DNA of 58,142 nucleotides, counting the filler, from Sphacelaria rigidula (lineage: Eukaryota), in the NCBI GenBank assembly GCA_964200075.2. It is 8 parts of 8 records of this genome, joined end to end, with 100 filler letters (N's around TTAATTAATTAA, not from the genome) between each part and the next. Parts side by side here need not be neighbours in the genome. Positions count along the whole stretch, not along the records: positions 29,123 to 36,302 come from CAXNAA020016107.1; positions 36,403 to 43,582 come from CAXNAA020016108.1; 6 more parts are not named here. One strand, 5' to 3'. Below are positions 1,166 to 53,165 of the stretch, one piece after another. The notes beneath the pieces were generated by a model. It searched no databases, was not told the origin of the DNA, and saw only the letters and a list, made by a program, of their open reading frames with translations. A program made the translations under genes and the position numbers. Position 1 is the stretch's first letter. Each line of letters begins with the position of its first letter.

Positions 1166-6269
<5,104 letters not shown>

Positions 6270-20407: not shown

Positions 20408-21844
20408 AACGAGAAACGCTGAAGGATCCGGATTTTGAAGGAAAACATTTAGCTGACTCGACTGTAGTTCCATGCTTGCTGGGAGTCGTGATGTGAAACT
20501 CAAGGGTTACATGCGCACTTGAAGTACAAACTTGATATCTGCCCACACATATTTTCTGCACCCAAGGTCAAGATTTTCGCAAGATCAGTTGTGTCAGGGC
20601 CAGCTGTAGTTCTCGGGCTCACTTCATATTTTCGACTCTCATCATGTCAAATTCATTCGGCACCCGGGTGAGAAATGAAGACGCTGAGGAATTCGGCTTT
20701 GGTCAGAGCGAATGTATGTTCTCTGCGTATTATACTATCTCGTGTTGAGAGTCCAGCATACTTGAACAGCAGGGATGAAACTTGTTGTGAAAAGCCTCTC
20801 TCTTTCATATTTCATTGCCGAGGGAAAATAGTAAAGGTATGCCGTAATGTTGTACAGCGTTCGACATTTCAAATGCGCACGTAAATACGATAATTCACTT
20901 CATGCTTCGCAAGTCTCATGGACAAAGTTTCGCACGTTGATCGATTCCCGAAGGACCCAGCCGCGGTCACAGGATGGATGTATCAAAAGTAAACAGAACG
21001 AAAACGCCCGCTGGCATAAAAAAAACGAAAAACAATTCGGAAAGATAAACAAACGGAGTGAGCAGAAGAACAAAAACGAATAAAATCAGAAAAAGGAGGG
21101 CAACGGATCGGCGGGGACCTAGAAATGGGAACAAGAACAAAACAAGACCAGTTGATTTTCGCATTCGAATGAGAAACAAACTGGTCCGGAAACCACGCTT
21201 TCCGAATATCTCGATCTCGACAGCGAAACCAACGAATGAGCAAACGACATTATGTTTGTGAATTAAGAACGCACATGAACGAAGTTCTACACTTCACGAC
21301 CCTTAGCAAGTATGGGTAAACAGTCAAATCAGCAAAAACGCTCTCGTCCAAATTCCGGGTATTATTGTGCTTCTCACGTTTCCCTTACGGTTTTGACAGG
21401 TAATAATCTTAAACCTCGCACACGTATATCCAGCCATGATACATTGATCGTGGCTGCTTTTGAGTACCCGTTTTCGATCACGGCCTCGACATGTCTATTG
21501 TCAAAAAGAAATACACGTGCTCGAAATTGGCCAGAATCATCGTACCCTTGTTTTGCAGAGGACTTATGGGTCGAAACATTGGCGCGTGGGATTGTACGCC
21601 ATGACCTCATTCATGAGGACTGCGCTCATCGCCGCAAGGATTGCTTGACAGCGGGTGCCGATAACACCAAGTAACAACAAATTGTGCGGATTGAGGTTTA
21701 ACTTCGAGATGAGGTTCAAGCCTAAAACAGTGCTTTCCCCACNNNNNNNNNNNNNNNNNNNNNNNNNNNNNNNNNNNNNNNNNNNNTTAATTAATTAANN
21801 NNNNNNNNNNNNNNNNNNNNNNNNNNNNNNNNNNNNNNNNNNCG

Positions 21845-21879
<35 letters not shown>

Positions 21880-22127
21880 CCGGTCAAACGACTAAGGCAA
21901 GCAACACATGAGAACGCCCCCCCCCCTCCCCAATCGGCCCCAAATGGAAAAAAGTGAGTGTGGGTTCAGGGATATTTTTTTCAACCGCCCTTGGGAAATT
22001 TGCAAGTATCATAATTACATAATTACGTTGTCTGTCGGTCACTTGCTATTTCAGGTGATTCCCAACATATCCCTTGGCACTCCGCGGTGAGGAGAGAAGC
22101 GGGTTACCCGCCACTCTCGATCCTGGC

Positions 22128-25100
22128 ATGACTCGCGTCTGGCCGCCCACCTTGTTGTGGACTCTCTTGTGCTGGTCTTACTGCACTCGATTAGCACCAC
22201 GGGTAGCTGGACAGGAGCAACAGCCCAAGCCCAAGCCCAGGGTGGCTGTGGTGGGGGCCGGTATTGGAGGGTCGTCGGCGGCGTTCTTCCTGCGAGAATC
22301 GGTCGGAGAAGACGTCGATATCGTTGTGTTCGACAAAGCCGAGAAGCCGGGGGGCAGGACCGATGTGAGAAATATATTTTATTTTTCTTGCTTATATGCC
22401 TGGCGTGCACCCTTCGTGTGGTCAGCTTTTCGGAGTATGTGTAGCACTCCGGGACGGAGTTGACAAGCCTTTGCACTGCTCTTGAAAACAACTCCTTGCG
22501 TCAAGTATCCACTCGGCATGTGCGCGGGGAGAGAGTACACAGCAGGTGCTGCGACTACAGAAGGTCGTGCGGAAGACGGGCGTGACTATCGGCGTGTTTG
22601 TGTGTGTGAGATTCGGATTTTTTATTTTATTTGTTTGAGGTCGTTATTAACTAGACTTGTTTTTCAGACTTTTTTGTACTTTTTTGGGAAATGTTCCGAC
22701 TTGAAAAAAAAAAAGGAAGAATCCAACGGGAGATTTTCGGAGTAATGTGTAGTCAGTGATCTATTGCTGGACCTGGTTGAGAGATGTACTGTCATATTCT
22801 TTGGGGAGGAAGCGTTTTTCTTCCGAAACAGTCTCAAAAATCTGAAAAAAAACAGCCCCATTCACCACGATTCTTATGAGATGCATACTTTTTTTCTCTA
22901 CTGCAAATTTTTCTGTAATGTCTTGGTGATGGCCGACCGGGACTTGCTTCTAAGATTTGTTGTTGGCGTGCTCCCCTCACGACATGGACGGGGCTCCCTC
23001 TCTAAGGTTAGCTCGCATTCAAATGGATTTATATAAAATCGATGGAACTATGGATCCATGATCGCCTTGTGTTGCAATACGTGCGGAAATCAGACTTCTG
23101 GTGTGCTCACATATCACGTTGCGGAATAAATTATATCATTGCGTCCCCCCACCCTAGTCCATATCGATTCCTCGCCGAAAAATTAACGCTGTTCGCGTGC
23201 GCTCACTGCGACTTGAACAGCAGCTCGTACCCTATAATGATTCGTCTGAATATTACTTGATTTTTGTGAGTGATTTCGCACCGGACAAAGAAAATCCTTG
23301 GGCTTTGTGTTCCGTGTTGAACCTCAGGTACGCGCACCCCAGGCACGTGGAACTCCGCGAAAGTTTTCTCAGAGACGCTTTTCACCGGCGGTCAACTTTT
23401 TTTTCCCTGTCTCGAGCAAGCAGGCCTCAGAAAATCGTTGATTTGGTGATTTGAACCAGCGATTACTCGTTCGACCGTTGCATCCTTCCGAGAGACTCTC
23501 GCTTCGGACGCAGCGCCTAACTCGCTCCACCTTTTGGGCTTCAGACTGTGATCTTTCACTACGGAGAAAGTGCGACGTATAATAGACACAGTTCAGTTGC
23601 AACGCTCATCTAACCACAGATCATACTGCAGTAGTAGTACCAAAAACGTCTGCTAGAAACAACATCGCCGACGAGTACATGTTGCTCGTCTTCTCTCTTC
23701 AGGATTTTGTTTTTGATGGCCAGACACTGGAAGTCGGCGCCTCCATTATTTACACCGGCAACGCCCATCTGTTCAACCTCACCGAGCGCGTCGGGCTGAA
23801 GCGGGTGGAGCCTAAGAAAGCAGAAGGGCTCAATACGGGACTATGGGACGGCAAGCAGTTCGTGCTGACCACGACGGACTCAGGTTTCTTCAACTTGCTC
23901 AAGATGGCGTGGCGATACGGCAGGTTGGGCGCCTAATGGCGGCGATGCCGCAGTGGAGTACACTGGAACTGTACCCACAGGAGTTTGTTGCATCGCAGTA
24001 TTATTCAATGAAGGTTTCGCCGTCGCGCACGATCCACGCAGCACAGCCGTGGCATTGTGTAGTGTCTAGTGAAGGAACTTCCCTTGCGAAACGTGCGTAC
24101 AACGGTGATACTGCTCTCCGTTCGAGGCGACGAGCAATCGTTGGCCTGGATACGACATTTGGGCATGTGACCCTTTATTACACCTCAAACATCTGCGAGG
24201 CACCTCTCGAAGCTATGGCGCGCGTTCAGTGTGGGCTCGCAACTCAGACCTTAAAGCTCATCCACCCCAAGACCGTGGAAATTTGGCGAAAACGAACCAA
24301 AGCACCCAATTATGTGCTCCTTTGTAGTTTTATCGGTGCCCGTTCTTCGTTGTGCCCGTGGGTCATCTTGATCAACGCAACCCAGGTCACTACTCAAGAT
24401 TAACTCCTTGGTCCGAGAGGCACTGGTCAATTTTGATCGCATCTATGAGCTCCAGGCCAAGGGGAGTTTTTTTTCGACACCAGAAGAGCTATGGGGTAAG
24501 AGCACGAACGTGCATTACTGTATTGTAACCTGCCCGCCTTTTACTCCGCCCGCGTGGACTTGTTGTGCGTGTGCTGCTCCTCGCCTGTTGTAGGATAATT
24601 ATAAGGAGGGAAGGGCCCTTCCTTGTGGCAATGTGTACAGTAGGGCTGATTGCTTGATGATAACACCTGTCGTCATCGGGTCCTTAGAGTAAGTATATCT
24701 CCGCCCGTGTCAACACGAGAATTGTGATGACTCTTGTGTTTTATCATCTGTTATTTTGTTATTTTTTTGTCATTGATATTATCATCATAATCCTTCTTGT
24801 TATGATTCTTCTTGTTATGATTTTCGCACGTCTTCTACTGTGAAGTTTTATTTACGGTAGCGAGTGTTGTCTTGTACTTATGTCGGGTACGTCTTTTGTG
24901 ATTACGATTGGATCCGTAGCAGATTAATTAACGTGAAACAGTCGATCAATCACGCCGGACGGAGTCAAGCACAGCCGGTCCCCAACACAAGCGTCAGTGA
25001 CTTTCTGTCTGACGGCTAACTTCCGCTTTTTCGACGATTGTGAAGGCGAAGTTGGCCTCCTGGCCCTGACCAAGATGACGATTTCAGAGTACCTGCACAA

Positions 25101-27921
25101 ACGACTGGGTAGGAAGGGATCGCCGGTCGAGGTGGAGCTGGCACACGCGGCGAACACAGTCAACTACAACCAGGTGCAGATATTTTTTTCTCGCCGAATG
25201 GTGCACCAATTTGAATTGGGTAGTATATAGTAGAACTTCAGCACTTTGCTTCGCGTTCACCCTCGCTCGTGGAGGCCTCGCTGAGGTTCCACCGTCGTCG
25301 TCATCCGTCTTTGTTCATCACCACCTTGAATTCGAAGCTGTGTCGCCTGACCTTTGACTAAACGGCGTCTCTCCGATGCAAGCCCTTCGGCGCCACAATT
25401 TTTTTTCTTCGTGTTTTTGGCGTACCATGTCGTTGTATCTGTCGGTGAGAGGACTGTCGCGCCCACGGTTCATGAATGGCAGTACAACTACGGTTTGCAA
25501 GGTGTTGGTGCTTGTTTTTTCGTCCTCAACGCACAGGACAACAGCCTTAACGCTCTAGCCGGCGTCGTCAGCCTTTGCCCTGCGGTCACCGGCGATCTCT
25601 TCAAGGTGGAAGGGGGAAACTCTCGGCTATCACAGGTGCAAGTAAAATCCAGCTCGCCATCGCTGTTGTTTTTGTTCAACAAAACGATGAGAGAAAAAAA
25701 AATGAAAAAAACGAGAAAAAACGTCATCCGGCGATTGCAAGATATCAAATCAGAACGTTCGACCCCGTTGCCTGAGAGTACTCTCCGATTATTCACGATC
25801 TTCCATTTATTCCGGTAGCGACATCATGCTGTACTGTCCGTTTCGCCTGGTCGTTATCCAGGAGCTGTTGAAGGCGGCAACCTCCCAGTTGAGACTCAGC
25901 ACGAGCGTAACAGGGGTGGTGGGGAGCGCTAAGGAAGGTTATTCAGTTTATGGGGACCGCCAGGAGAAACTGGGAACGTTCGACGCGGTGATAATCGCAG
26001 TGCCCATGAGCCTTGCAGGGATTTCACTGGACGTACGCAAGGAGGTACTTGCTTACGTATAACATGTATGACGAGTGACAGGGTCGTCCGGCGTGTCTTT
26101 GTGGTGCACTGTGCAGCCCCATGGGTACTTCTTGATACGAGTGGAGCAACAAGAACCAACTCTACTGCGATTGGTCCGAAAATCGTTTGTCGGCTTTGAA
26201 AGAGTCGAGCCGACGTTTAATCGACTAGCCTGTCCTCTTGTCTTGGTGTGTACATATATCTCCGTGACTTGTACGTATATGCCTGATTGCCACTACGGCT
26301 TGGGCGTTCTCACATCATCGGCAAGGCCAAGCTTAGTCGAAGTCGAACGCTTCCAGCCATACATCCGCGCGGTTGCGGTGGACAAGATTCTTGATTAACC
26401 TACAACCCGCTCTCAACAGCGGCAGTACGCCTGCAGTCGCTTGAACCACGAAAAGCTGAAAGATGCAGCAAACCCCGAAGCCTCTCCAATAGCACCACAG
26501 ATCTCGAACCCTCGCCCCCCACGTTTAATTCACGGCGCTTGGATTGCATCGTGCTGCTGTCTTTTGCTGGACACGCAGGATGGCGAAGCGGAGACGCTGC
26601 GTCAGCCTTTACCCCCGGTTAGATATCAAGAGGTGCACACCACTTTCGTAAGAGGGATCGTTGACAAGTCCTACTTCGGTCTGCGTCCCGGCGACGACAT
26701 GCCGGCGAGCGTGTTGCTCACGGAGAAGGGCGCCGTGGATTCGCCATTTTCCTCGCTGGCGCTCCACACACATACAGGCGTTCCGTCGCAAGGAGTCTAC
26801 AAGCTCTTCTCGAGGTACCTACGCTGCCGAGCTCGACCACGTAGTCTTGGCTTCTCCTCTTCAATACACGTGTACCGCACTGTGCTATCAGCCGGGCAGG
26901 CAGTGAATACCTCCGGGCAACCGGTGGTGAAAAAATGTTCATCTGCGAGAGCCTACTTGAAGGCCTGCAGATGGTCTCCGTGCCGAGACACGAGCGCGGC
27001 GTGTGCGTGGGACTCTCAGTCCAAGCGCCCAAACAGTATCCTTGTTGTTTCCCTATCGACAACTGTAGCAAAGAGAATAGGACAAGTGGCAACGCTATTC
27101 TCCCGTGGATAAAAAAATCAACCGCCGAAAATCCCGTCTAATGAGCCATGCCTTCTGCTCTCGCTGGCTTGGTCTGATATCAGGCGAGAGCTATGGACCG
27201 GTGCCTTGGACCGCGTCTTCATCAAGGGTGCTTGGGACATCCTCCATCATAGAGAATGGCGCGCATACCCAGTGCACACCCCCGCAGAGGTGAAGAGGGC
27301 GTCCGACGTTTGTCCTTCGCCATTCGTGTTTTTATGTCATTTTTTGCTCTCATTGCGTCCCGAAGTTGTTACACATTCGGGTCTTGCGTAACGCCTGTGC
27401 CCCTAGCGCATGCACTACTGTATGTACGCAACGCTTGATGTCTTTCGAAACGCGTTTGAGAACGGGTAACTCATGTAAAGCGGAGTTAATGATACGGCCT
27501 GCTGGCATCAGAGCCGGTGTGGAACGCAATGGTGCTGATTATGTTGGGCTCTTTCTCCCTGTGCTGTTGAGCCTGCCCAGCTTTTGTGTACAATCCTGGC
27601 TGTGGGAGTATTTTTCGATGCAGAGAAGCTAATTCTGTGCAGCCAGGCCCAGAGCACAAGTCCCGGAGGCCGACGTGCTCAATGTCAACGTATTTTTTCT
27701 TTTCATCGAGATAATCTTGAGGGACCTGCTTTAGCTGACCCGTTCTCCCGCACCTACTTAGGGGTGTTGGGTCTCAGCGCACCGCAGTTTCTAACGCGGT
27801 CAACACCAACCTCCTTATTCCATACGTGTTCCGCGATTCTCAGGCATTTGCGCCGTCAAATCTGTTTCCGGGACACCCCGTATGGTACACGTCAGCCCTG
27901 GAGGAAGGCGTCAGCGCGATG
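22128..27921 (+). CDS. PCYOX1: Prenylcysteine oxidase / farnesylcysteine lyase, partial (last exon not found)
   Basis: Phase-compatible exons 22128-22364 (signal-peptide-like start, VAVVGAGIGGSSAA, GGR), 23703-23923 (LEVGASIIYTGN, GLWDG), 24386-24495, 25046-25173 (VNYNQ), 25537-25635 (VEGGN), 25862-26044 (FDAVIIAVP), 26579-26814 (YQEVHTTFV, VYKLFS), 27184-27289 (WRAYP) and 27844-27921 (YTSALEEGVSAM). Confidence 0.9.
23250..23560. repeat. Dispersed repeat, with an inverted copy at about 32930-33180
   Basis: GATTTGGTGATTTGAACCAGCGATTACTCGTTCGACCGTTGC is the reverse complement of GCACGGTTCGGACGAATCATCGCCGGTTCGAATCACCACATC. Similarity extends over about 250 bp. Confidence 0.6.
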
Positions 27922-29979
27922 GTGAGTAGCGCATGGGGTTGATTCTTCAAGCGTTTGACAGGCGATGTTTTTTTTTTATTCAATAGTCATCATTGTTTTG
28001 TGCAAGTGCTGAAGCGATTGTTGGGCATACTTCGTTGCACAATTATTGTAAGTGGACTGTGCGTTTCAGTCGCCGTCCCAGTATTGTCGAGTAGCTTTCA
28101 GTAGCCAACGAAGGAACGCCCGAAAATTGGGAGTGTGACTCTCGGTTAGGCCTTTACGGGGTATGAAAATGTTGAAATATATGAACATTTTGGGCGGAGA
28201 TGAGTCTGATTTTTTGTCGATCTTCAGTTTGCTTTTACATAAAACAGTTACTGTCGCCGCTTTTTCTAGTTGAGAGCTCAGGATATCCGTACCGGAGCAT
28301 TTCTCCGAAACGTGCATTCCCCTGAATGGTCAACGCGATTGTGACGGTCTCCGTAGGCCCTACTGAGTAATGGCCATTTCCCGACCCAAGTAGAGGACTG
28401 AAAGCCGTCTCGAATCATGGAACCTTTTGGCGCCGAACGATACGCGAGCGGCACAGCAGTGCTCGATCTTGTTTTGGTATATAAAACATGATTTATATCC
28501 TTATGCAGTTTGCTGACTGGGGACCGCGGGCCATGTCAGCCGTTTGCTTCCCACGTCTCATCTAGCTTCCTGACCAATTACTTCTCCCTGTGTAGTACCG
28601 CTCTGTCTCGAAAGGGATGCGTGATCAATGGTCAAATTTATGAGGCAGGCAACAAATGACTACCCCCCCCCCCCCCCCCCTCCTCCTCCCCAGCGGTCTG
28701 GCGAGAACCCCGCGTGCTACGCCCCGGCTTTGTAGGGGCGGACCCCCGATGGGGTTGGCGTCGGTTGACGATGACGCTATAAAACACGCCTCACTGCGCA
28801 AGCTAGGCAAACCACGTTACCGCTTTTGTTTTGCGCGCTTGCGTTTTTTTTGCGGTAACCATGATGATAGTCGAGCTAGATGATGTTGTGCGGCGTGGGA
28901 GAACCCCGACTCCGCACGATGGGGGCAATCGTACTACGTAGTGTTTGGGTGGTGAGACACCCATGAGGCAGTGTATATGCCGTGGCTGTCTCTGGAAGTG
29001 GCGATACCAGAAAATCAAGCAANNNNNNNNNNNNNNNNNNNNNNNNNNNNNNNNNNNNNNNNNNNNTTAATTAATTAANNNNNNNNNNNNNNNNNNNNNN
29101 NNNNNNNNNNNNNNNNNNNNNNCGAACCCCACGACTCAACCATCAGAAGGTCACGAGGTTACCAACTGAGCCACCGGGGCGATCGGTCGACTTGATATAC
29201 GATATATTTATATATAGGCTCGTAGATCATCGTCTAGGGTTTCGTGTACCAGCTACAAACTCGACGGTTGCATCTTTTTCCGACCATTTTAACCTACCTC
29301 GCTCCCTCTCCCTCTCTCTAATTATTTTTTTTTACCGTCTTGACGTCTTTCTCCTCCATGTGCCACTCTTCACCGAAACCCGTGGTCGGGTGATGAAATA
29401 CGTTGTCCGGAGGCGTTTTGGGATATCGATTTTTCTCCTTCACCTGGGAAGAAGTTGGCACGATACTAGTGCAATTGTTGTTTCTGGCACGGCTCTTTTA
29501 TTTTGTTTATGAAGATCTGCCGTTGTCAATCCACAACTCACTCCCCTTCGTCGCCACCGCCACACTAAAATCAAGAGAACAAAGGATTAACCGAAACATG
29601 CATGTGTTGCGGGCAGTAGCATTAGTGCTAATGTTGGTATCAGTATTAGTACTAAAATAGTGCCATGGTTGGTATCAGCAAGAGTAGTGGTGGTGCCGTT
29701 GCTGGTATTGGTAATAGTGTTGATGTATTGATATGATATCAGTGTTGGCATCGGCACTATTACATACTACGTACTGATTTCCTCCGTCTTTTGCTGGTCT
29801 CTCTCCTGGTGATCATATGACTACAGCATGCAAAATCATAACCCCCCCCCCCTCCGCTGTCTTTTGTGTCTACTTTTTCGTTGGTTCTTGTGTCATCGAC
29901 CTCTACTCCCAATATTGTGAATGGGCTGACATGGACACGGACTCGCGCATGACGCTGCCTTACACACCCCGGAGTGTAG

Positions 29980-32900
29980 ACGACGAAGCGAAAGCGGCGG
30001 GAGCAACCTGGGCTTGAGTTCCGCAGGGTTGTCACCGGGCTTGATACCGGGGAATGTGCCACCACCTCCTCAGGAGCTGGAGGCAGAGGTAATAAAACAT
30101 GATTTGTGTTGCCCTGGTTTAAGTCATCACTGACTTTTATTGTTGTTGCTGCTGTTATCGTTATCATATTCATATATTTGTCGTGATCCTCTTGTTTCTA
30201 CATGCGTATGCACGGGTGATATGTACACTTGCACCAACGTATAATATCTTCGTCGCTGTAAAAGCATATTCCTGACTACTCTTAATAGGCAAAAATTGTC
30301 GCGAGTTCGAATCCTAACGCATAGCTTTTTTTTCCTCTCGCAGAATTTGCTTACGCCTTTGAAACCGATTCTCTCGATCGGTATTATTGGGGAGACTTAT
30401 TTTCTACTTTCGAGACAATTGGTACGGTTTTTAACCCTCAAACAGGGATACATCATCATCGCACGTCTCGATCACTATGCATCAATCCACCGAGTGGGCT
30501 ACAAAAAACCTCCAGGACACCACATTTTTTCGTCTAGCTGTACTTTTGTTCAGGGAAGGTATTCTTCAAACCTTGGAGTCAAGCGAACCGGGAGGATGAG
30601 CTAGACTACTCTCGGTGAAGTGACGCAAAGTGTTCAAGGCGTGTGATAATGATATCCCTAGTTTGTGGGTCGAGAATCGTATCGAAGGTTCCAAAAGTGG
30701 AAATTCCCCCCCCCCCGCCCCCCCAAATACCAACCGTAAGAAACGATTTGTCATGAATATATATGTATATTAGGCAGTACATTTATTACATAAATAAATA
30801 TATATTGCAGCGGCAAGTTCATCAGGCATCAGCAAGTTGGTCTGCAATAGTGTTGGATATCGTATCGAAAACATTTCGATGAAACGATAACGTATGGTCG
30901 AAGCTGGACACGTTTTCTCCAAGGCAGAGAGACCTTGATGAGGCCGATTCCGATGGGAAACAAAGCCATGTATCCCGATGTTTTTGCCTCCGACGGCGCC
31001 TTCCGCGGGGCCCCCTCACGAGCCGAGGGGGGGGGGGGGCATTTGGGGCCCGCAAAGCGAGGGGACTCGCGGCGCNNNNNNNNNNCCCCGTTGTTTTTGC
31101 CCCCGCCGGCGCCTCCCGCGGGCCCCCCCCCCGGGCGGGGGGGGGGGGGGGGGGCATTTGGGGCTCGCAAAGCGAGCGGACTCGCTGCGCTCGCCGTGGT
31201 TCGGCTTCGCTGGAATTCATCGGAATTTATCGTCATCGAACGCTGAAAAAGCCGATATCGTATCGAAGAAATTGTTCGATATTCAACACTAGTCTTCAGA
31301 CCACAGCGATGTACTTTCATCGGGCCGATTCGGGCAGCTTGGGACGTAAAACTTTGTTGTGTGAGGAAGGAATGCTATTACAGTATTTGTGGCTCGCCCA
31401 GCGTGTACGAGTACATGACCGCGAGTAGTGAAAGCGCTGATCGAAGATGTTATGCTTTGTGATGGCATTTTGGAGATCGATACATTCCTCTGCTTCTTTT
31501 TTTTTAGTACCTGTCGTGTTTGTTTGCTTGATATGTGGGTAATTCTCTACAAAATCGTTCAACCTTTTTTTTCATATTATTTGTGTTTTTCTTTTGTGAT
31601 GTGCCATTGCTGTGGTATGTCATGTGTTTTCTTTGATACGGAATGACCAAAACATGACGTGTTTTTTTTTTTTTTCGTTTTTCTGAAGGTGGCCTTCCTC
31701 AACCGTCAGTTATCGGTGCGAATGACTCTGGAGGAGAAGCTCAACGCGTCGGAAGGGGAAAAATCAAGGCTCATAACGAAGGTATCGTCTTGTCGACCCC
31801 CACCTTGTACCACTATCATGACATACATGTAGAGAAAAAAGTAGTCGGAAGTGTGGACTTGAGTGTACTTGTAGTGCGTAAAATATGTGACCGTTCTGAC
31901 CCGTTAACAGACCAGGATCTTGACAGCAAGAGTAGCGGTTGAGAAGATCTGAAAGGATTGTACAAGATAAATTACAAAAGGCCACTTTCCACAGCCACCG
32001 TTTTTGGAGAAGTTTATACGTATGGGCGAGGCGTTAGGAGAGGACGGGGGGGGGGGGTCATGGCCTGTTGTTGGTGGAGCCTCTTGATCAGCATGCATGC
32101 GTGTATGGAGTCGGATATACTGCTTGTGCGATCGGGCTGTCGATAGTCGTCGTATCCCCCTCTTTTTCTTTTGTTCCCCTCTGCCATCAGACTTCCTGTT
32201 ATTGTTGCTGTTTCTGTTGCTGTCAGTATTGTGGGTTTGTTGCTGCTGCCGTCGTGAGTCAACCGTGATCTGTGCCTTCTCTTATTTTATTTTTCTCATC
32301 GTCTGTTGTGTTGTATCACGTTTTTGCAATTGCCCGTCATCTTGTGGCGCTGTTGTCGCTGTTCCTGTTTCATTCATATTCCCCTTGATTTTCGTCGTCG
32401 TTGTTGCTGTTGTCGCCACAGTTGGCCAAAACAAAAGCCGACGCTGGACGTCATAGAGAGGCCCTCGAGCGGACGGTGCAAGACATCGCCGACAAGCTCA
32501 CTTTGCAAAAAGAACAGGTGTGTAACAAGTGTCGGGTCAGCGATAGCCATCTGACGCTTGGGCAAGTTGATATATATGCATGCGCGATGTCATGACGCAT
32601 ACACATAGTCACACAACAGTCAATCAGGTTTGTGGTGTAGTATCCTCGTCCGAACAAACCCGACCCATCCCCCGGCCGCGAACTAACTGGGCGCAGCTTT
32701 TCCCGCTTTTCAATTCGAGCACTTAAACCAACCCTCTGATTGCGAATGTAGTCATTCTCCATGAACTCCCGTATTCCAGGTATAGATGTCAACCATTGGC
32801 ATCGTCACATGGACCAGGGGAGTCCGTCGACTTGAAATCCCCCTCCTCCCCCCCTGTTGGGGAAAAGGTCGATTTTGCGCATCTTGCGCATCTGGACGTT

Positions 32901-33993: not shown

Positions 33994-34963
33994 GTGAGCT
34001 AGAATTTCTTGGGGTGCGAGGGGATGAGGGAGGGGAGGGAGAGGGGCACTCGACTGGGACTAGACCGACCTTTTTCAACTCGACTTGAGGTTATGTTGTG
34101 AGCTTTGGATCCGCCCATGATTTTTTGGCCGTAGAAGGATCTGTCCCATGTCCTATAAGCGGGGTTGTGTTGGTGTCCATCGTTGCTGATTGTGATGGTT
34201 TGGTTGATCAAGTTTTGCGAAGTTCTACCAGTCGTACTGTAGGCGGAAAGTCATATGCACGCACTGGTCTGGACTGATCGGGAGGCACTAGTAACCCCTT
34301 CCTGTGCATCCAAGGTATATTGTTTTTGTACAGTTTACTCCCAATGATTCGTCTTCCTTTCCTTGTTTTCAACTTCGTCGAGTTTCCTCTCGCCGGTGTG
34401 TCCGTTGTGTCTCGTACCTTGGACACGTCCATCCTGTGACTACGTCTGGATCGCTGGGGCATGAGTTGAAACGGTTTTGAACCCTGTCCTTCCCAGGGTA
34501 CTGTAGGAGATGTGGGGAATCAGAAGTGTTCATGATGACGATGCACAGATCGTCTAGCCTAGCAATCACAGAGTTGAGGCGACGACCAATCAATCAATCA
34601 ATTGATCAGGTTTTCTCCGTGCAGCAGGTGAGAGTCCAACCCCGAGTCGCAGCAAGTGGGATCCGAGTCGTGCAGGCGCAGATTGCAAGTGAACGTCACA
34701 TCATCATCACTGTTGTTGAAGCTCCGAAGAACATGCACAGACAGTAGCAAATCAATCTACTTCCTTCGCTGTACTGTGCTCTGTTCTGTTGTTATACCGT
34801 GCCGTAAAATTATGCAATTTCATTGCTATGTCGTACTCCACTGTCTCCTATGAGCACTTCCCTTCCTTACAGGGGTGAGGGTTAAAATTACAAAGTGGTG
34901 TGGGAGAGGTTTGGTAGATTCATGGTGAGTCAGTTTATCCCCTTCCAACCACCCGGGGGTTGA

Positions 34964-35485
34964 GAGAGGGAATCGGGATGAAAACATATCTGCATGGCCC
35001 TATGGACGCGGCGAAAAAATGAAACTGCGATGTCGGGTGGGGGACCTGGACCTGCCAAAAACAAGAAAGAGATACCAGTAGTCGTGCGGAAGAGGAAGCA
35101 GATGCACACAACTGCCTCTGTGGCGAAGCAATAGAAAGCAGAAGTCATATAGTTGCAGAATGTGAACTATACAAGGAGGAACGGGACGTGCTAAAGGGGG
35201 AAATGCGGGGCGTGAACGAAGGTGGTACGAAATCATTTGATGCATTATGAGAATAGGGAGAAAACGGTGGCTATACTAGGAAATAGATGGTGGCCAGAAA
35301 CGGCCAAACAGGACAGGGAGAAGATATGCACAAGTTTTTGTGCAATGTATGAAAGAAACGTAATGAGCTCCGGAATGTTGGAGGTGTCTTTATTAGAAGT
35401 AGAAACGGTGCTTGGTCTCGAAAGGGGTGCGTAGTCAATGGTCAACCGACTATTACAAGGCAGGTAACAAATGAGTACGCCCCCC
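34964..35485 (+). mobile_element. 5'-truncated LINE 3' end with CCHC knuckle and oligo(C) terminus (C-tailed family 1)
   Basis: Encodes ...DAHNCLCGEAIESRSHIVAECELYKEER and AILGNRWWPETAKQ, and ends ATGAGTACGCCCCCC. Flanked by imperfect direct repeats CCCCTTCCAACC..GG.GGTTGA (34939-34963 and 35486-35509). Confidence 0.75.
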
Positions 35486-36569
35486 CCCCTTCCAACCGAC
35501 GGAGGTTGAATGCAGGAGTAGCGGAGTGCTTTCGTTTGGGCGCCCAATGGCGACACGACAATTAATTTTAGATATACTGGCACCGGTGTAAAACGTGTCG
35601 AGTCTTGGCGATATACAGTACAGGGTTCATATTTACTTCGTGATGAGCTTCAAGTCCTGGGCACTGCTGTACCGCCGTTCACGTTTTGTACGGATTTTGT
35701 TTTTTGTTTTCGGAAGTCACGACATCCCGACAGTTGCGGATTCTCAGTGGGGAAGAGAACGGAAGGGAGATATTGTGGATGAGATAAGACACGTCGAGCT
35801 GTTGATTATTCGCTGTACGTGCAAGAAATAGAGGATGAAAAAAAATACACACAGATATGTAAATGTGTGTACGGGATGTTATCGTTAACGACGAAAACTG
35901 TTGAGGAGTATTCGCCGTTGATTCTCTTTTGTGTTCTTTGATTCATGTGTGATATTGTCGGAGAGAGGCTTAAAAGAAATGGCCTTCGTGGTCAACAGAC
36001 ACCCTGGCAGTGCCATGAGTGGTTGCTCTTGTCGCTGGGGGAGACAAACTAGGTTGACACGAAACAAGCGTTCTTTAAGCTTGTTGGCAAACGTTGCGGC
36101 CGGTACCACTTGTTTCTTGTTGTCGTCGCCGCCATCGCCATCGCCATCGTCATCGTCGTGTTTGATCTTCATGTTCCTTGTGTTAATTTTTTTAACAAAC
36201 TAAAACTCCACCCCCGCCCCCCCCCCGTCTCGGAAGGGACGCGTGGTCTATGGTCGACCGATTAAGCCGAGCGAAAAATGAGTACGCCCCCCGGCCCACG
36301 GGNNNNNNNNNNNNNNNNNNNNNNNNNNNNNNNNNNNNNNNNNNNNTTAATTAATTAANNNNNNNNNNNNNNNNNNNNNNNNNNNNNNNNNNNNNNNNNN
36401 NNGAGATTATTCGGCCCGAAGCCTACTGCTTATCTTGCATTTGGATGACAGCTAACAATGAGTTGCTTTATTCTGTGGTATCGCCACTTCCTGAGACAGC
36501 CACGGCTTTTTACACTGCCTCATGGGTGTCTAACCAGCTTGTTTGGGGGGCGGGGCTATCGTAGAAAGT

Positions 36570-42116: not shown

Positions 42117-45100
42117 GTAGTACAACGATGATGTATCATCCAATCCCACAAGGGAGCTACCGTACCGCTGATTATTCGATCTCGCAACAGGCAAGGCAGA
42201 GCAGCAAGCATGGAGATAACTCTAGGTGAAATAAATTGGCCCCGCATTTCAAAACCGATTTCTGCCAAAATCGAGCCCATCCGGATTGAGGGGAAGAACT
42301 ATCGCATGGGACATGTCCTGTATCACTGTGCCGAAGCACAAACACACTCATGCGCTGTCTCTTGCACTGTAGCTGTCGCTGCGCTGTGGTGTCTCCATGT
42401 CGTGTCGAAGACGGCTTGCTCTCCGCCGGGACTGACTGCATGACTTGCTTTACTCCTGTCACGGCGTTCGCTTCGAAAAATAATGATGTCGGCACGCAGC
42501 GGTCTCTAGTCACTCCAGTCAAACCAACAAGGCGCTTCCCACACCCATCATTTCTTCGTTGTAATTGTCGCTGTGATGTTGTGCATCTACACACTCTACG
42601 ACGATCGCAGTGTGATGTTTGCTGAAGCGTGCGTGAACAGTTGTAGGGCTGCATGCTGTGTTTCGGCCTGCACAGAAGTGGGGTGACATCAAAGTGCTGT
42701 ACACAGAGTTGAAACGAGCACATGACGACTGTGCAGCTGTCAATAAAAAATGCGAAGATATCTCATTTCACTTTGAGTGACCCCTATCTGTAGGAGGTTA
42801 GCCAGAAATACACGCGTCACCTAAAAATAATGACCTGGCTCATATGAAATGTACTAAATAAACATGGTACATATCTTCAAGCCTGTGAATGCTCGGTGTT
42901 GAGATGATATTGTTCCTTCGGATTACTCGCTCCAGATCAGTGGGTGGAAATTCTTCGTGCACTAGTGTTCAGCTGCTGTACTACTCGGGAAGCGAACCCC
43001 CCCGGACAGCCACCCCACATTTACCACCATTGCGAAGATAAAAATACAAGAACACGAACAGCAGCAGTTGTGGCCGCCACATACCAAGGCATCTGCAGTG
43101 AAAGGCGTACTTGACATCGTGCTAGAACGAGAGTACGAAAATTTGGATACCAGGACCAGCAGCGTCGAGAATGCCTTGGGTTCTGTCTCGAAAACGTCTG
43201 TCACAAGACGGCCGTGTTTCATCGGTGAACTCGTCCTATACAAGCCAAGGGGTGCACTGAAGGGGCATTCGCTCATGATACGTGAGAATGCCCTTTGTAC
43301 ACATCCCTACAGAACAGAGCAGCACATGGCGGATTCCACAAAAGCAGAGGACGTGTCATTGGTTCCAAAATATAGCATTTGGTCGAAGATGCGAGTTTGT
43401 GTACATCGCATGATCTAGTATCCTTTCGAGTATGTACAGCGGCAGTCAGCTGAAACATCGTGGCTCTACTGACATGGTGCACAAAACCACACACAACCGT
43501 AGTTTCGTGAGATTGAGAGTCTACGACACGATTGAGAGTAGACTTTTCATTCGATTCAGCGGCCGGTTATGCCTGCATCACTNNNNNNNNNNNNNNNNNN
43601 NNNNNNNNNNNNNNNNNNNNNNNNNNTTAATTAATTAANNNNNNNNNNNNNNNNNNNNNNNNNNNNNNNNNNNNNNNNNNNNATGATACACATGTATCAT
43701 ACCGTCCTCCGCTGCCTTGAACACCCACGTATCCATCTTCAACCAATTCGTATTCTCGCCCGTGTTCAGAGTCCAAGGCCAATCATATGTCATCATACTC
43801 ATCGACACAGACGATCGTCCGCCACAGCCGCTCCTCCTCCTGGAGTTGAGTACGTGCCCACTCGACGATGTGATATACGAAGGCAGCCCTCTGTGCTGCA
43901 GCCTGGAGGATATCTTGAGGTACGGTATGCGCTGCAACACGCTTTGACTACACTCCACCGTGAATCCACATGTTATCGCTAATATTTACGGAACTACCGT
44001 GTCTCAGCATACATTTGTCCTTGCAAACCAAGCCCGGTTGGGTAAGGCTATGCGGTACGTGCGAGAGGCCTAATTCCCAACAATCAGATTGAACAGCACG
44101 ACACGTACGCACCCCCTCTTCAAGACACACGGCAAGTGCTGTGCGTTGTAATACTGGATACTAGTCGTTTGTTTTAGTCACACACGATTTTACGACGCGC
44201 CCCAGTGTTGCAGCTGGTATCGCTACGGCCAGTTTGGACGGATTTCGTAGCTTCCAATCCCGGCAGATATGGCCGTTGCACGCACAATCTGGAGTCCGTC
44301 GTTGAACGCACGAGGAGGACGTGTGTGGCAAAACGGAGTCTGAGAAGGAGGAGTAAGGGCTGCAGGGGATCTCATGCGATTTACGATAATCGATTGTCAC
44401 GCATGTGAGGGGAAAGATAGGTCACCCTTTTGAGCCTACGGATTGGTCACGGGTTAAGGGTGAAGGAGGGGGGGCGTGGAAAGCATGTATGTGAACGGCG
44501 TACATATTGTTGGAAATATATATGGCTATCGTGGCTTGTGTACAAAATTCACAGTGTTCAACTGTCAACGTGACAGGAACACTTGGTTCAACTGGTGAAC
44601 CCAGCCCTGACAAGAGAGCTCGCAGAGGCTGCACAGTGTTGGTTAAACACTTACTTGTGCTATAGAAGAAACATGTTTCAAACTTGGGTCTTGACTTGGC
44701 CGAACTCAAATCAAACAAAATCAGTCTCTACTCTACAGAAAACTGATGACAAGCTGGAAGGCTTACTTGAGGTGGGTCGCTTTGAAGAATGAAAGCGTAG
44801 GGCTACGTTAATTTCTCGACAATATTCTTGGGTACAAAAAACTATTTATCCAAAGTGTTGACACTTTAGACACTTCGTACTTGATTATTTACTGTTCTCA
44901 CAACGTGCTGACTTTCTGCATACGAGCTATACAGTACAAGCGCTATTCATTGTTCTAGGATGATTCCTTCACCTCTTCGGTTGCTACTACGTGCTTTGTT
45001 CTAACGATGAACCGTAAGTGGTTGTACCGCTAATCTAGAGTACGTATACTCGTACCTGCTATTTCTTAAATTCCAACGAGCCCTTTGGAATGACGTTTCG

Positions 45101-46777
45101 AATGTATATCAAAATACGAAAATCACTCTCATTTTTATCCAACATGTATACTGTACTCCACTTGTACGTTACTGTGCTTCCCTGTACCTTGCTGTTCGCT
45201 ACTGTACTTCACTGTACTTTAACCAAGTATCCCTTCGTGATGGAAAAAACGAATACTCGTATCTACTAGGGTCACTGAGTCCTATTCCGTTGATGTTGTC
45301 GAAGCTACTCTTCTCTGCTGTTGCTTTTCCTTCGATCGTTGTTACACTACGCCGTGTTTGGTGATACTTCTCCTCTACATTTCACTACTCTCTACGTTAC
45401 ACCTAAAATCCTAAAATATTAGTCCGTAGTTTGTATATCTGCTGCTGCTTGGTGTGGGCGTCGTCACTGTTGTCCATGACGCTCAAGTGCTTCCCAGATG
45501 TGTCCTTGGTCCGTAATTCCTTGACGCTGGAAATTGACAAGCATGCTGCTTGCATTGCTCGGGGTGGTTTTGGAATGCAAACATTTTGTGGTCGTACCCT
45601 CCTCTTGTATTTCTCGCATATGTGTATCCTCATTGTCTTTGATGTACGCGGGCGGTTTTATCAATTTGCTGTTCAGGTACACTGGTGACTGACCTGATCT
45701 CCTGTCATTACTCGCCAAACGTGTCTTATTTCGAACCTGTCGCCTAGTACTGAATCTACTATTGTATTAATTCTTGATTCCCAGTGTCGTAAAAGATGAC
45801 TGCTGCTGTTGCCGCTTCTTATTGTGCCGGTGAAAATTACTATTTTGCTTGTAGATGTGTATCTCCTCTCATTTTGATTTGCTGTCTTTGACTTGATCGA
45901 TGACAACGTATTTGCACTGCTCTTCTTCTGCTTTCTACGCGAATCTTGGTCTACTTTTGCTCTCTCACTGACGAGTAAAGCTGTGCCTACGCCCATTGAT
46001 TTTCCTGATATCACGGTAGCTGTTAGCGCTGAGCTACTCGAATTACCCTCAGAGATGATTTTCATAATTATCCCCCGTACTATCCCGTTGTTTTCAACAT
46101 TCATTGGAATTTCAAAGTCTCCCAAATCCAGATGTGGATCTGCTGAAGAAAATAGTCCTCACGCACTTCTTGAGTGCTTCGCAAGGCGAGAATAAATGTT
46201 TCCCTAACTTGGGTACTCGAATGGCAGCTGAACACACAGACCTCTCATAACCATGGGTATCTATCACTATCGTGTGTATAACTCCTCTACTTGTTCTTTC
46301 TAGCAGGTGTCGTATTGCTGTTGGTATGCTCATTGGGGGACTGAACTCAACATAGTCTGACATCGCCCGCTCAATACCAGGTAGTAAATTACTGCCCGCG
46401 CGGTGGGTGCCTGCCCCTGAGTCGTTTATTACTGAAAACGAGGTTGACATGGCTACGTTTCTACTGTGATTATCTACAAGTCCTGTTTGTAGTCAAATTA
46501 TCTACCACTGGTGCCGACGATGCACCTGTATGTAGAACTTGTGCGTTTGTACATGCTGGGCCGCCTAAGAAGCGGACTTTCCTTCAGCCGGTTCTAACTG
46601 ACGATCTATCGCGACTTGTGCCTGCTATGACACATCGTGGTCATCTGCAAATCAACACACGTCTTTGACTTCACGTAGCACTGCGATCTGACAAGTTCCC
46701 ATCAAACGAAATACGAAACTGTAGTCAGCTGCGAAGTGTAGAGAGTTGAGGTTGGCATGTGCGGCGGAATTAGGGGG

Positions 46778-46897
46778 CGTACTCATTTGTTGCTTGCCTT
46801 AGTCATTTGACCATTGACCACGCATCCCTTTCGAGACGGAGCACCGTTCCTACTCCTAATAGAGACACCTCCAACATTCTGGCGCTCATTACTTTCT
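46778..46897 (-). mobile_element. 120-bp 5'-truncated C-tailed retroposon (family 1) nested in a repeat
   Basis: Matches the 3' end of 34964-35485. Perfect 14-bp TSD GCGGAATTAGGGGG at 46764-46777 and 46898-46911. Confidence 0.85.
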
Positions 46898-48206
46898 GCG
46901 GAATTAGGGGGGGGAAACGGCTGAAATCGTATTTACGATTACAGTCGGTTGTGCCGCGGCCGCAAATTGATGGTGCTGCAGAAGTTGTGCTTGTACAACA
47001 GTGCATGTCGTACTCTAGGCGCGCGGTGTCTGAGATGGCACGCAGACGAGACCTCCAGCGCAGCGCGCCAAGGCATCGCGCTTGTAGAAAACGTCAAAGT
47101 TCCGGCTGAGGTTGTTGTACTCTAAAAGCAAGTGAACCGGTTCTTGACAGAAAAACGCGATTTCACTGCTCGACTTTCGAGTCGTTTTCGATGAAATTTT
47201 GACACGATATACATGGGATATATGTGAAGCGCCTGCCGTTTCGTCCTCTTTTTTTTCTTCTCGTGTGTTATTGGTGATCTGAATTTCGGAACAGTTTCTA
47301 CTGGTGCAAAAGCATCGACAACTCATCGGAAAAAAATGTCGAGGAGGAACAATAGGGGGACTCCACAACATACCTCATGCGCTTCGTTTCAAAATTTTGT
47401 GGAAAAATACTCGAAACTGAGCAGCATAACCGCGTCTCATATTCTCGTGTCCACATAGGAACCAGTCTTCGACAAGAACACGCGATGTAGCAGCTCAATT
47501 TTTGGTCGTTTCCTATGAAATTTCGACACAACGTACAAGATATACGTGCAAAGACTCCATATTATGCCCCATACATTCATTCATTTTTCTCCGTGAGTTT
47601 TGGCGACCAAACATTTCAGAACAGTTTATTTTGGAACAATATCGTGAATAACTCCCCCAAAAAAAAAGAATGTAGGGGGCAGAAGATGCAGTTCTTGTAC
47701 ATACATTTTGTACATTGTGTACATTTTTTAAGGAAAAGGATCCAAAATCGAGCTGCTAATTCGCGTGTTCACATCCCTGTCCGCGTCTTGGGCGGCCCAG
47801 CCTGTAGGCTCTGAATACGGACTTGTGTTCAGGGTAACCATGTTCACTTGCTGATGTGGATGTTCCACGTTACTAATATTCTCGACACCACTATTGTGCT
47901 CAACGTTGCCATTATTACTCCCTGTGCCTTCACCATTCCTATTTTGACTTCTACACTCCGTGTTATCATGGCAGGCTGTCTTGTGTAAAGTACGCCTTTT
48001 TGTAGGTCTACCGATATCATTAGACTGCTGTCTAAACGTGCATTCACGTATATGATAACCCATCTTTCTACAGGAGAAATACCTCACTTGGTGTCTTGTT
48101 TTCTCCCCAGAATATTCTACAGGTGATGCTGCCATCATAGCACTATCTCTACCATGTGACTTTTCATTCGAAACACCACGCGCTATTCGGTTGACGGGCA
48201 ATGCTA

Positions 48207-48460: not shown

Positions 48461-51400
48461 TAGCATTGCTCTGACGTCTATATTACGCATTGTTGACTTA
48501 ATGTCCTTCAAGCTAAAATCAGGATCACGTCCAGCGTTACCCTTGATTTGTATGTAATTACCGGTTATCCCTTCTATTACCATTTCTGTGAAAAGCTCTT
48601 CCGCTACTCTTTCCCCCCATGTAAGCGAGTTCGCCTCTGACCTGATTAGCTTGTGTGAGGACGATGTCTGGGTCTTCACCTGTGACATGGTCAATTTGTC
48701 GAAGTGTCTCATTAGAAATTGTCGTTTTTGTTCAGACGGGATCTGGTATTTTGCTATCAATCCGTCCCATGTTTTTTCACCATCGTGTGTAGCAGAACCC
48801 TGTGGTTCGAACCTTAGCAGATAACTGTTATATGAAACAGCACTTCATTATTGCGATCGAAATCAGCTACTTCTTGTGCGTTACTGACTACTCTTACATG
48901 GATGTCAGGACTGTCTACTCCAACTTTGGAGTCCAGACTTGATGACATAGCAACTTCCTCTGTCGACGTCTCCTCTGAAGATGTTTCTATTTCTGCTCCC
49001 GTTGGAAGGCTTCTAGAACGTGTAGCTGTAGGGCTTACCCTCGACGTACTTCTAGCGTTGAGCTGCAGAATTTCTGCATCCTGCCGCTGCCTAACTTCAT
49101 AAATTTCTTCGGGACGATCTCTGCCGTTAATCATTTCTGAAATGCCCGGATGTATTAATGAAACTACTGCCCGAACGGACCGTTTCCACTCGAGGAAACA
49201 TGTCCCGTTAAACTTACTGAGACTCCTCATGACTTCAGTAACGGAGGGTTAAGTTAACCTTCTCTGGGAATTCCGTTGCTGCATCCTTTTTCAAACCGCA
49301 AGTGAATGGCGATACTTCTTTCTTGTAAATAGTCTAACACGACCACATGGAGCAGTTGACATGTACTCCCCCCGCAAAAAAAACGTGCCTGAGCCCCAGG
49401 ATGGGGTCTCATCGACGTGGCCAGTCTTAGACTTCAATGACACGTTCACATCAAAATGTGTGCTGTATGCTCCCGTCCCCCGCCCAAGCACATCAGCTAC
49501 CGCCGCTGCCCTCCACCGACTATTACCCGCGCTCAAGGGACGCTTGGGAGGCCACCCACTGGAGGGTCGGTGACCCTTTGTACGGTCAGTGAAATCCTTG
49601 CATACCACCCTTGAAGACATTATGTGTGGAAGAACAAACCAGTTCACGAAAGAGCTGCGTGACTCATATTAAAGACCATGCAGCAGTTGCACATCACGAG
49701 TGCTTAGGACGCCTGAACCCCTTAGACGCGAAGGCGGCCATGCTTCATCGGTTGACTTGGCATCTGTTTTTACGCTGTTGGAAGAGGGATTGTTTCAGCT
49801 ACCCGAACTGATCAATTTGCCCGCTGCCAACGAGTTGATTGAACGAGCTCGCTCGAACTATTGTATACCGCCGACCACAGCCCCATATATGGCGTTGATG
49901 GTATACTGGTGCTGCCCGATGTCGACGTGGTTCTCCCATCGGTATGGGGTGGCAGCTGTCCTGGGGAAGGCTTTGCTGTTGCGTGTTATTGTTCTACGTG
50001 ACCATGCGTTTCTCGTCGTCGTTGCTGCTGTTGCTGATGTTACTGCTGCTGATGATGATGATGACTCTAACTCATAAAGGTACATCGGCGAAGCGGCCGA
50101 AGGTTTGGACCATATGCCTCAGCACAACATAGTGCATGTGGACGTGGAGGCAGCTAACGTGTTCATAGCGGTGCTTCCTGATGGATTGAAGTGCGCCCAA
50201 GGTTGCCGACTTGGGGCTGGCGCTGCGTGAGTTCAAGCCAGCGTAGTGTACTACATACTGCGTAGAAACAGTATGTGTAGGAACGTATTGACACTAACGA
50301 GGCGTGCGGGTCGAGTGGGAAAAAACAGGCCAACGTCTCTGCAAACTACGCGCAAGAAATACTGAATGGAACGAGTGTATAAAAAAGAGGCCGTCTTGCG
50401 TGAAACCAGAGTCATTCAAGGCATCTGATAAACTAGAAGCGATGGAATTTTAGTCAACCTACAGCTAGTATAAACACCGAATAGCGGGGTTTTTCACAAT
50501 GCTTGTAGCAGTAAGAAAAGCAGAGCACATTTTTCGGTGAAAAAACGATTTTCACCGCGATTTTCTCAGTGAACAGGATCCTGAAGCTTGAGCAAAGCCT
50601 ACCCCTCAAAATATCTCTACGAAACGTGCACCACACCAGAAACCAATGGCGGAATAGATTGAGTGTCCCCGCATGTAGCAATCAACGGGAGTACAGAACA
50701 TCGAGGATGAACACGCCACCGCTGAACCAACCGCATGTTAGGAGCTGTTGGCGTCTCGCTTCTGTCGTTGATGCGACCTGCAAGCCAGCCTCCCTCCCCC
50801 CCCCCCCTCCCGCTTTGCTGGTTCGGCGAGAACCCGGCGTGCTCCGTCCCGGCTTTGTAGGGNNNNNNNNNNNNNNNNNNNNNNNNNNNNNNNNNNNNNN
50901 NNNNNNTTAATTAATTAANNNNNNNNNNNNNNNNNNNNNNNNNNNNNNNNNNNNNNNNNNNNGGTATGTCTGATCAATGCTACCACGACTAAGACAACCA
51001 ACAACTGAGTACGCCCCCCCCGTCTCCCCCGTCTCCCCCTCGACCCCCCGTTCTTCAGATACTATTCTCAAGCGCCGTTTTTTTGTCCCAGCCTACACAC
51101 AATACATACATTCGGCAAGATGCACCCTCTCCATAACAAACGGCACGCTTTTTCGATCGTGTGACATTGACCTATAGCAGAGCAAGTCAAAACAGCCAGA
51201 CCACGGTGAATATTTATCCTCCGTCTCACTTTATGCCCCTTTCCCCCTTCCTCCTCCTTTGGGACGAGTCTTCGGTCTCGAGGGCGTATCGACCCGTCTC
51301 TTCGGCCGTACTATACGCACACGCTTTGCATTTTGGTATCTATTTGCGGATTATATGAGCACGCCGGCTCCGCGTCCGTTGACTCTCGTCAAATGGCGTC

Positions 51401-51518
51401 CGGTGATGGCCCAATTGGTATCCGTCAGGAATCGAACCGGGGCCCGCGTCATTATTCACACTTGCTTTCTCCTGCTCCGTCATATTCCATTGTCTTGCTG
51501 GCTTGATCACTTTCCCAG

Positions 51519-53154: not shown

Positions 53155-53165
53155 AAAAACGTAGT

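Follow-up and report, generated by a model that had tools for sequence, protein, structure and literature searches.

The DNA analysed here, which we call the window, is a stretch of 58,142 nucleotides (nt), filler included, from the genome assembly of Sphacelaria rigidula (GCA_964200075.2). It consists of eight pieces of 7180-7181 nt each, linked by spacers of the form N44-TTAATTAATTAA-N44 (positions 7182-7281, 14463-14562, 21743-21842, 29023-29122, 36303-36402, 43583-43682 and 50863-50962). Scattered over the pieces are copies of the 3' end of a long interspersed nuclear element (LINE) and of a short sequence that resembles this end, and the recognisable 3' ends of both run directly into a homopolymer of C's. 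We call the LINE's own 3' end type A and its short non-autonomous partner type B.

The main type A copy lies at 34964-35479 on the plus strand. It is a decayed, 5'-truncated LINE 3' end of 516 nt, with last bases ..AACAAATGAGTACG (35465-35479). Its open reading frame (ORF) survives as a remnant that stops at a TGA 5 nt from the element end (..AAATGAGTACG). The initial annotation had seen a LINE 3' end with a CCHC knuckle here, and protein alignment bears this out: the remnant aligns at 50% identity (tblastn) with P0010, a full-length LINE protein, over residues 1190-1355 of the latter, and it has retained the motif C-x-C-x8-H-x4-C, in which the C, C, H and C do not vary among all eight aligned relatives.

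A run of ten C's (35480-35489) follows directly. Its final four C's belong to a target-site duplication, so that the main copy has six C's more downstream than upstream (ten against four); it is the sole resolvable copy with such a surplus. The duplication is 24-25 nt long and begins with CCCC, as had been claimed. Its upstream copy, 34939-34963, is CCCCTTCCAACCACCCGGGGGTTGA and reads CCCC TTCCAACC..GGTTGA; the downstream copy, 35486-35509, is CCCCTTCCAACCGACGGAGGTTGA. The two differ by three mismatches and one gap, a divergence that fits an old insertion. The final ~9 nt of the upstream duplication are similar to the element where it is truncated, possibly through microhomology.

The same 3' end was said to occur at four other places, and BLAST finds it at all of them (21882-21930, 28605-28674, 36227-36292 and 46773-46897). 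The copy at 46778-46897, on the minus strand, is 120 nt long and near the consensus; it is flanked by a duplication of C5-8 plus TAATTCCGC, at 46898-46914 upstream and 46764-46777 downstream. Two plus-strand copies consist of the terminal unit only. One (36227-36286, 60 nt) starts with GTCTCGG.. and sits between C10 (36217-36226) and C6 (36287-36292). The other (28605-28662, 58 nt) runs from GTCTCGA.. to ..ATGACTA and is followed by C18 (28663-28680) and then by a truncated type B copy (28696-28737). The shortest, 38 nt at 21879-21916 on the plus strand, lies between C34 (21845-21878, preceded by CG at the start of its piece) and C10 (21917-21926).

Further ends exist beyond these four places, namely a type A end at 50971-51021 and three type B ends. 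The former occupies 50971-51013 on the plus strand at the start of piece 8, and C8 (51014-51021) follows it. Type B is non-coding and is similar to the LINE 3' end over its final ~57-80 nt (77% identity over 57 nt, E 1e-5). A type B copy of ~300 nt at 213-513, on the minus strand, ends in ..ATGAGTACA plus C7TC5. Another 3' end on the minus strand (7113-7181), with C5TCC after it, is truncated where piece 1 ends. The third, 39 nt at 53417-53455 on the plus strand, lies between C8TC8 (53400-53416) and C4TC7 (53456-53467).

The element ends can also be found by pattern. The sequence TGAGTACRCCCC, with at most one mismatch, occurs nine times in the window where 0.45 matches are expected, and none of 100 shuffles reaches nine. 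Eight of the nine matches are element ends, the type B ends being located at 209, 7109 and 53448. We rejected the remaining match (19294-19305) as chance, since it falls where an unrelated RTE-like LINE encodes its endonuclease. A tenth end, that at 28605-28662 (..ATGACTA followed by C18), escapes the pattern and was recovered by BLAST.

C runs stand directly 3' of all nine recognisable ends in the window (six type A, three type B), with lengths of 10, 5, 18, 6, 10 and 8 after type A and of 7, 5 and 4 after type B. The same arrangement is found elsewhere. A protein-guided scan of metagenome contigs yielded four loci on four different records (L001-L004), all of which end in (A/C)TACG and continue with C10, C8, CCTC7 and C11. 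Each of these 13 ends has a C directly after its last base, and 12 of them have at least four; in L003 the sequence reads CC, T, C7. An A run follows none of the 13. A LINE of the L1 type, which depends on poly(A) and has an A/T-rich target, does not fit, because a C run, not poly(A), lies beyond the ends.

Genome-wide joints were taken from Logan contigs of four runs, mapped onto piece 7 at a likeness of at least 90%. Three of the runs (X1, X4 and X5) are labelled 'organism A' and one (X3) 'algae metagenome'; together they come from two studies. Contigs that pass the element end into a homopolymer number 467, 441, 345 and 116 in X1, X3, X4 and X5, and the consensus homopolymer comprises 24, 21, 22 and 18 G's on the plus strand, which are C's in the sense of the element. 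The letters beyond the homopolymer vary between the runs. Therefore no conserved A or microsatellite tail stands behind the C run, and the claim that the element ends in oligo(C), and always before C runs, can be kept. Over the LINE fragment, the contigs of X1 add up to a depth of 2.2-6.1 million, against ~62-84 for single-copy contigs on the same piece, a figure that is not a copy number.

Whether C runs precede or follow an insertion can be read from the copy at 46778. This copy lies in another repeat, and alignment reveals a paralog of that repeat in piece 1. The paralog holds no insertion and has a single C9 at the insertion point (3589-3597, minus strand). In the orientation of the element the empty site reads ..GCCGTTT-C9-TATTTTCGCC.., and the filled site reads ..GCCGTTT-C8-TAATTCCGC-(120-nt element)-C5-TAATTCCGC-CGC... 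The empty paralog carries C9, hence the run predates the insertion. Contigs that skip the insertion, with joints from 46774-46776 to 46915, number 14, 10, 5 and 2 in the four runs; most likely they represent further paralogs of the host repeat.

The duplications tell the same story. The copy at 53417 duplicates CCCCTCCCCCCC with its T interruption included, so the duplicated tract is derived from the target. Duplications are resolvable for three copies; all begin inside a C run, and they extend 9-21 nt past it. The empty site, the skip joints and these duplications agree with the earlier proposal that G/C runs are targeted, and together they support C runs as the probable insertion target. In the full-length copy at L001, the 906 nt that precede the ORF contain no repeat of the 3' flank; this copy probably begins beyond the contig.

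A discrete unit of 58-66 nt, GTCTCG..GAGTACG, recurs within the family. Its start is shared by the copies at 28605 and 36227 and by ~170-200 contigs each in X1, X3 and X4, where it falls at the same point or within a few bases of it, ~60 nt from the end (mapped places 46843 and 46773). In 201, 186 and 172 contigs of X1, X3 and X4, a unit whose truncation point lies ~60-66 nt from the end has a C run ahead of it. Roughly as many contigs extend past the start of the unit into the LINE body. Units also join each other head to tail ('goes back 71') in 53, 40, 24 and 7 contigs of X1, X3, X4 and X5. Finally, a type A end with its C run is joined to the last ~110 nt of type B in 37+14, 42+19, 26+8 and 7 contigs, the layout seen in the window at 28605-28737. 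We see three candidate origins for the unit: the smallest module that can be mobilised, a favoured point for stopping or joining (a hot spot of truncation), and a satellite that descends from the 3' end.

The protein identifies the element. Searches with the C-terminal remnant match an 'unnamed protein product' of Sphacelaria rigidula and unnamed ENA proteins, and a longer fragment leads to the full-length ORFs of P0010 (1360 amino acids, aa) and P0012 (1328 aa) and to several proteins of Ectocarpus sp. The named protein matches are from Sphacelaria rigidula and Ectocarpus sp. The complete ORF can be reconstructed: P0010 and the intact ORF of L001 (907-4989) are single ORFs of 1360 aa with an endonuclease (Pfam Exo_endo_phos, 170-392) and a reverse transcriptase (RT; RVT_1, 740-989). 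The element is a brown-algal LINE with a single ORF for endonuclease and RT (EN-RT).

The homologous Ectocarpus proteins are P0013, P0015 and P0025. P0013 ends in ..NGQMTTASNK, like P0010 and P0012, and 13 of the last 14 residues match (..GQMTTASNK and ..GQMTKASNK). Over the C-terminal 340 aa, identity to the query protein (P0004) is 64% for P0013 and 48% for P0015, and P0015 reaches 66% over the RT. At only 64% and 48% identity, our element therefore probably comes from another brown-algal species or lineage than the Ectocarpus ones. The names of the proteins matched do not assign the RT to a clade, and a search of the protein atlas gave only unnamed clusters of RT fragments from animals. We infer an RTE-X assignment from the matching features and the Ectocarpus homologues; the RTEX clade is said to have been defined by Kapitonov et al. 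in 2009.

Five more distant relatives (P0020, P0021, P0026, P0027 and P0043) are 44-51% identical to the RT region of P0010. They keep a G-C/R-V-V-N/Y-G peptide a few residues before the C-terminus. Of all blocks in the non-coding type B, the one that corresponds to this peptide in the DNA of our LINE, GGGATGCGTGGTCAATGGTC, is the most conserved. It may have a double role, in the protein and as a recognition sequence at the 3' end.

The initial annotation took a family of this kind to be perhaps undescribed, without excluding the contrary; such a family is in fact on record. The curated library of a study of the transposable element landscape of Ectocarpus (Genome Biol 2025; PMC12477816) lists RTEX-1a_Ec32, of 5867 bp, as 'single EN-RT ORF; (C)n 3'' with a 'C-rich' target-site duplication, and the same curated table holds RTEX-1b_Ec32 (Supplementary Material 3). 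RTEX-2_Ec32 (5582 bp) is annotated with '(C)n termini/TSD'. The library also contains non-autonomous elements: RTEX-N1a/b_Ec32 (607/604 bp), with '60 bp 3' end 83% RTEX-1/RTEX-2' and the remark 'can be present in tandem', and RTEX-N2_Ec32 (188 bp). Other tails in the table are '(CAA)n 3'' for RTE-1/2 and '(CA)n 3'' for CRE-1 (PMC12477816). The (C)n end and the C-rich duplication are thus already known from this library. The term 'C-rich' does not occur in the main text of that paper, whose passages on RTE-X and on tails are silent on a C tail, its target, a mechanism or an empty site. In our literature searches, judged from titles and abstracts, no further description of a C-tailed LINE appeared.

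According to its table entries, the Ectocarpus pair resembles ours closely. RTEX-1/2_Ec32 share with our LINE a single EN-RT ORF, a (C)n 3' end, a C-rich duplication and a very high copy number. RTEX-N1/N2_Ec32 resemble type B in being non-autonomous, in sharing the last 60-100 bp of the LINE and in sometimes lying in tandem. The partners differ in size, ~300-420 nt here as opposed to 607 and 188 nt in Ectocarpus, and are likened here by their description in the table. New here are the empty-site comparison, the duplications that carry an interruption, the family-wide junction counts and the discrete 60-nt unit, not the kind of element.

To explain these observations, we consider it likely that the copies belong to a brown-algal LINE of the catalogued RTE-X kind (RTEX-1/RTEX-2_Ec32) and to its short non-autonomous partner, and that both insert by target-primed reverse transcription at C/G homopolymers. 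The LINE encodes one protein of ~1360 aa, with an N-terminal endonuclease of the AP (apurinic/apyrimidinic) type, an RT and a C-terminal CCHC region. Its ORF reaches to within 8 nt of the 3' end, and the element, devoid of poly(A), ends in ..TGAGTAC(G/A) followed by a C homopolymer. Judging from the duplications and the empty site, the bottom strand would be nicked first, within its G run, and the top strand afterwards, 9-21 nt downstream. Nicks at these positions make the target-site duplication start with C's.

Under the priming rule that we find most likely, the 3'-OH of the G run would pair with the C's in which the template RNA ends. A C-tailed RNA pairing with a G-tract primer is a plausible arrangement that fits the data. 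We know of no polyadenylation-like step that adds C's to nuclear transcripts. The C's of the RNA would therefore be transcribed from the (C)n that the source copy carries in the genome and not added after transcription. Each insertion would leave a new C run, and the tails of older copies would become targets in turn, which would give rise to C-flanked copies and tandem arrays.

In its strongest form, this reading makes C/G homopolymers self-propagating landing pads, where a G-tract 3'-OH primes on encoded oligo(C) and where the ~60-nt module GTCTCG..GAGTACG is the minimal mobilisable unit. We put this form forward tentatively and would lean slightly against it if pressed. If it is true, the abundance and the tandem arrays of the ~60-nt module are accounted for, many long C/G runs in brown-algal genomes have a source, and the family offers the first worked-out pairing of a non-A mononucleotide tail in target-primed reverse transcription.

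The C's could also belong to the target only. The RNA would then have no C tail, the endonuclease would nick G runs, the RT would start at ..UAC(G/A), and all C's at the copies would be duplicated target. Two of the three resolvable copies speak for this: the downstream C tract does not exceed the upstream one in length at 46778 (five C's against eight), and at 53417 the downstream C4TC7 is a subset of the upstream C8TC8. The T interruption in the duplication at 53417 and the C9 already present in the empty paralog point the same way. At the main copy, however, six surplus C's are left over, and none of the 13 ends lacks C's directly after its last base. A consensus run of 18-24 is moreover longer than would be expected for the part of a run that lies 3' of a random nick, and the Ectocarpus curators count '(C)n 3'' as part of the consensus (PMC12477816). 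On balance we think this explanation rather unlikely. Much less probable still is that the RT adds untemplated G's to the nicked bottom strand before it reaches the template, which would make the runs a by-product of insertion instead of its target. LINE reverse transcriptases are capable of untemplated addition, as is known from R2, and such addition would produce the surplus at the main copy and the long runs beyond the ends genome-wide. Yet the empty paralog and the skip joints place the run before the insertion, the duplications start within the run and take in its interruption, and upstream runs in the contigs are as long as downstream ones.

Another alternative concerns the short units and their arrays, which may be a satellite that arose from the 3' end of the LINE and was amplified through unequal exchange or replication slippage instead of repeated retrotransposition into tails. 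The 'goes back 71' joints, with short spacers such as GGG and GGGCGG, and the common start base of the two window copies (GTCTCG) would follow naturally. Nevertheless, solitary units lie at unrelated places (28605 and 36227), the B form behaves alike with a different body (53417, and 50818 in the contigs), and amplification accounts for the arrays only, not for long copies with target-site duplications. We judge a satellite origin improbable. An assembly or sequencing artefact at homopolymers deserves practically no credence: eight of 16 piece ends lie in A/B repeats or C runs, where the assembly breaks, but the same junction occurs in four independent contig records of other assemblies, in four runs from two studies and in the curated Ectocarpus library.

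Several observations weigh against insertion of an RTE-X element at C/G homopolymers as we propose it. At the copies themselves, C's of the tail and C's of the target are indistinguishable, such that the C's could be wholly target-derived, and the surplus at the main copy could be explained by homopolymer drift in an old copy. The copy at 28605 has no upstream C run and no recognisable duplication. Homopolymers of at least eight bases are enriched in the window for C/G (20 runs against 1.1 in shuffles), and 11 of the 20 adjoin an A or B copy according to a manual reading of the run list; A/T runs of this length are enriched as well (35 against 1.8), so richness in homopolymers is not peculiar to C/G. 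The 3' end shows no significant RNA fold (last 83 nt, minimum free energy -22 kcal/mol, z -0.64, equalled by 51 of 200 shuffles), and compensatory changes occur in none of the 16 predicted pairs of its consensus fold. Membership in RTE-X rests on published annotation, features and homologues, not on RT phylogeny or alignment to an RTEX consensus. As to the contigs, at 90% likeness the joints are drawn from repeat copies across the genome, with loci not individually inspected; X1 may be the very sample behind the window assembly; and all four mapped runs are contigs, and none of the listed runs is on record as RNA.

Among known LINEs, L1 is the obvious comparison. L1 has a poly(A) tail, nicks at TTTT/AA and primes from a T-tract that pairs with the A tail. 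Our element resembles it in the AP-type endonuclease, target-primed reverse transcription, 5' truncation, the mobilisation of short partners and a 3' homopolymer that merges with the start of the duplication. In contrast to L1, the homopolymer here is C and not A, and the clade is a different one. A C homopolymer cannot stem from polyadenylation and is therefore encoded or copied. The partner differs too: it shares the 3' sequence of the LINE (the 'stringent' type), which Alu does not.

LINEs with simple-repeat tails, such as CR1/L2/UnaL2, the I-factor and the RTE-1/2 and CRE-1 elements of Ectocarpus, resemble our element as we read it in having a DNA-encoded repeat tail that is regenerated in each round and a 3' end common to the non-autonomous partners. 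RTE is alike in its very short 3' untranslated region. Unlike in these LINEs, the repeat unit here is a single nucleotide, and the target is the same homopolymer. The initial annotation had spoken of a G/C mirror image of the L1 rule; simple-repeat-tailed LINEs, for example RTE with (CAA)n, appear to come closer to our element than a strict mirror of L1 would. Microsatellite-specific LINEs of the R1 clade (Waldo, Mino, Kibi and Koshi), reportedly described by Kojima and Fujiwara in 2004, likewise insert into arrays of the simple repeat with which they themselves end. Their targets are di- to tetranucleotide repeats and they belong to another clade, whereas here the target is a mononucleotide run of which a few bases suffice.

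LINE tails are thought to set the site and manner in which reverse transcription is primed. A family with a C/G homopolymer as both tail and target is a natural test, outside poly(A), of the rule that the primer pairs with the tail. The family also bears on the homopolymer content and the quality of assemblies, given its place beside 11 of the 20 long C/G runs and at half of the contig ends. The occupation of these ends by A/B repeats or their own C runs suggests that the pieces are contigs of similar length from a fragmented assembly that breaks at this family.

The window contains further parts of type B. A second copy (2-196, minus strand) lies directly in tandem with the copy at 213-513. 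A truncated copy at 50821-50862, on the plus strand, begins after a C-rich tract (C12 at 50796-50807) and is cut by the end of piece 7. A 5' part at 36410-36536, on the minus strand, stands at the start of piece 6 and is preceded, in element orientation, by CCCCGCCCCCC (36545-36550). Another 5' part, at 28844-29020 on the plus strand at the end of piece 4, includes ~100 nt of conserved upstream sequence, and type B may accordingly be longer than 300 nt.

No known RNA was found in the B copies with Rfam at gathering thresholds or with ARAGORN. We rejected type B as a strict short interspersed nuclear element (SINE), for a head of the RNA polymerase III type, derived from tRNA, 5S or 7SL, was not found by these searches. 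Their sole match is a tRNA-Cys (GCA) gene at 53164-53238 on the minus strand, ~180 nt upstream of the short B copy at 53417-53455.

Other mobile elements are present as well. A different LINE occupies ~15900-19400 on the minus strand; it has an AP-endonuclease and an RT (RVT_1 in the ORF 16943-17707, E 5e-10), is interrupted by frameshifts and is 31% identical to P0010 in the RT. Its C-terminal ..GRPPKQWEDTLKEN.. region has what we take to be an RTE-like appearance. Part of the sequence downstream of this LINE (14694-14915) recurs at 2573-2784. An ORF at 11486-11986 on the plus strand encodes a hAT-family C-terminal dimerisation domain (PF05699, E 4e-18) and belongs to a remnant or copy of a hAT transposon. 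At 30974-31190, two direct repeats of ~115 nt flank an N10 gap and contain long C/G runs in both orientations (C10, G13 and G18); these repeats have no recognisable kinship to the A/B elements. Intron-interrupted fragments of host genes lie at 4173-4820 (minus strand) and at 22059-22463, 25351-27112 and 51407-51826 (plus strand). They represent a GDP-mannose 4,6-dehydratase, an NAD/FAD-binding oxidoreductase with prenylcysteine-lyase-like exons and a mitochondrial carrier.

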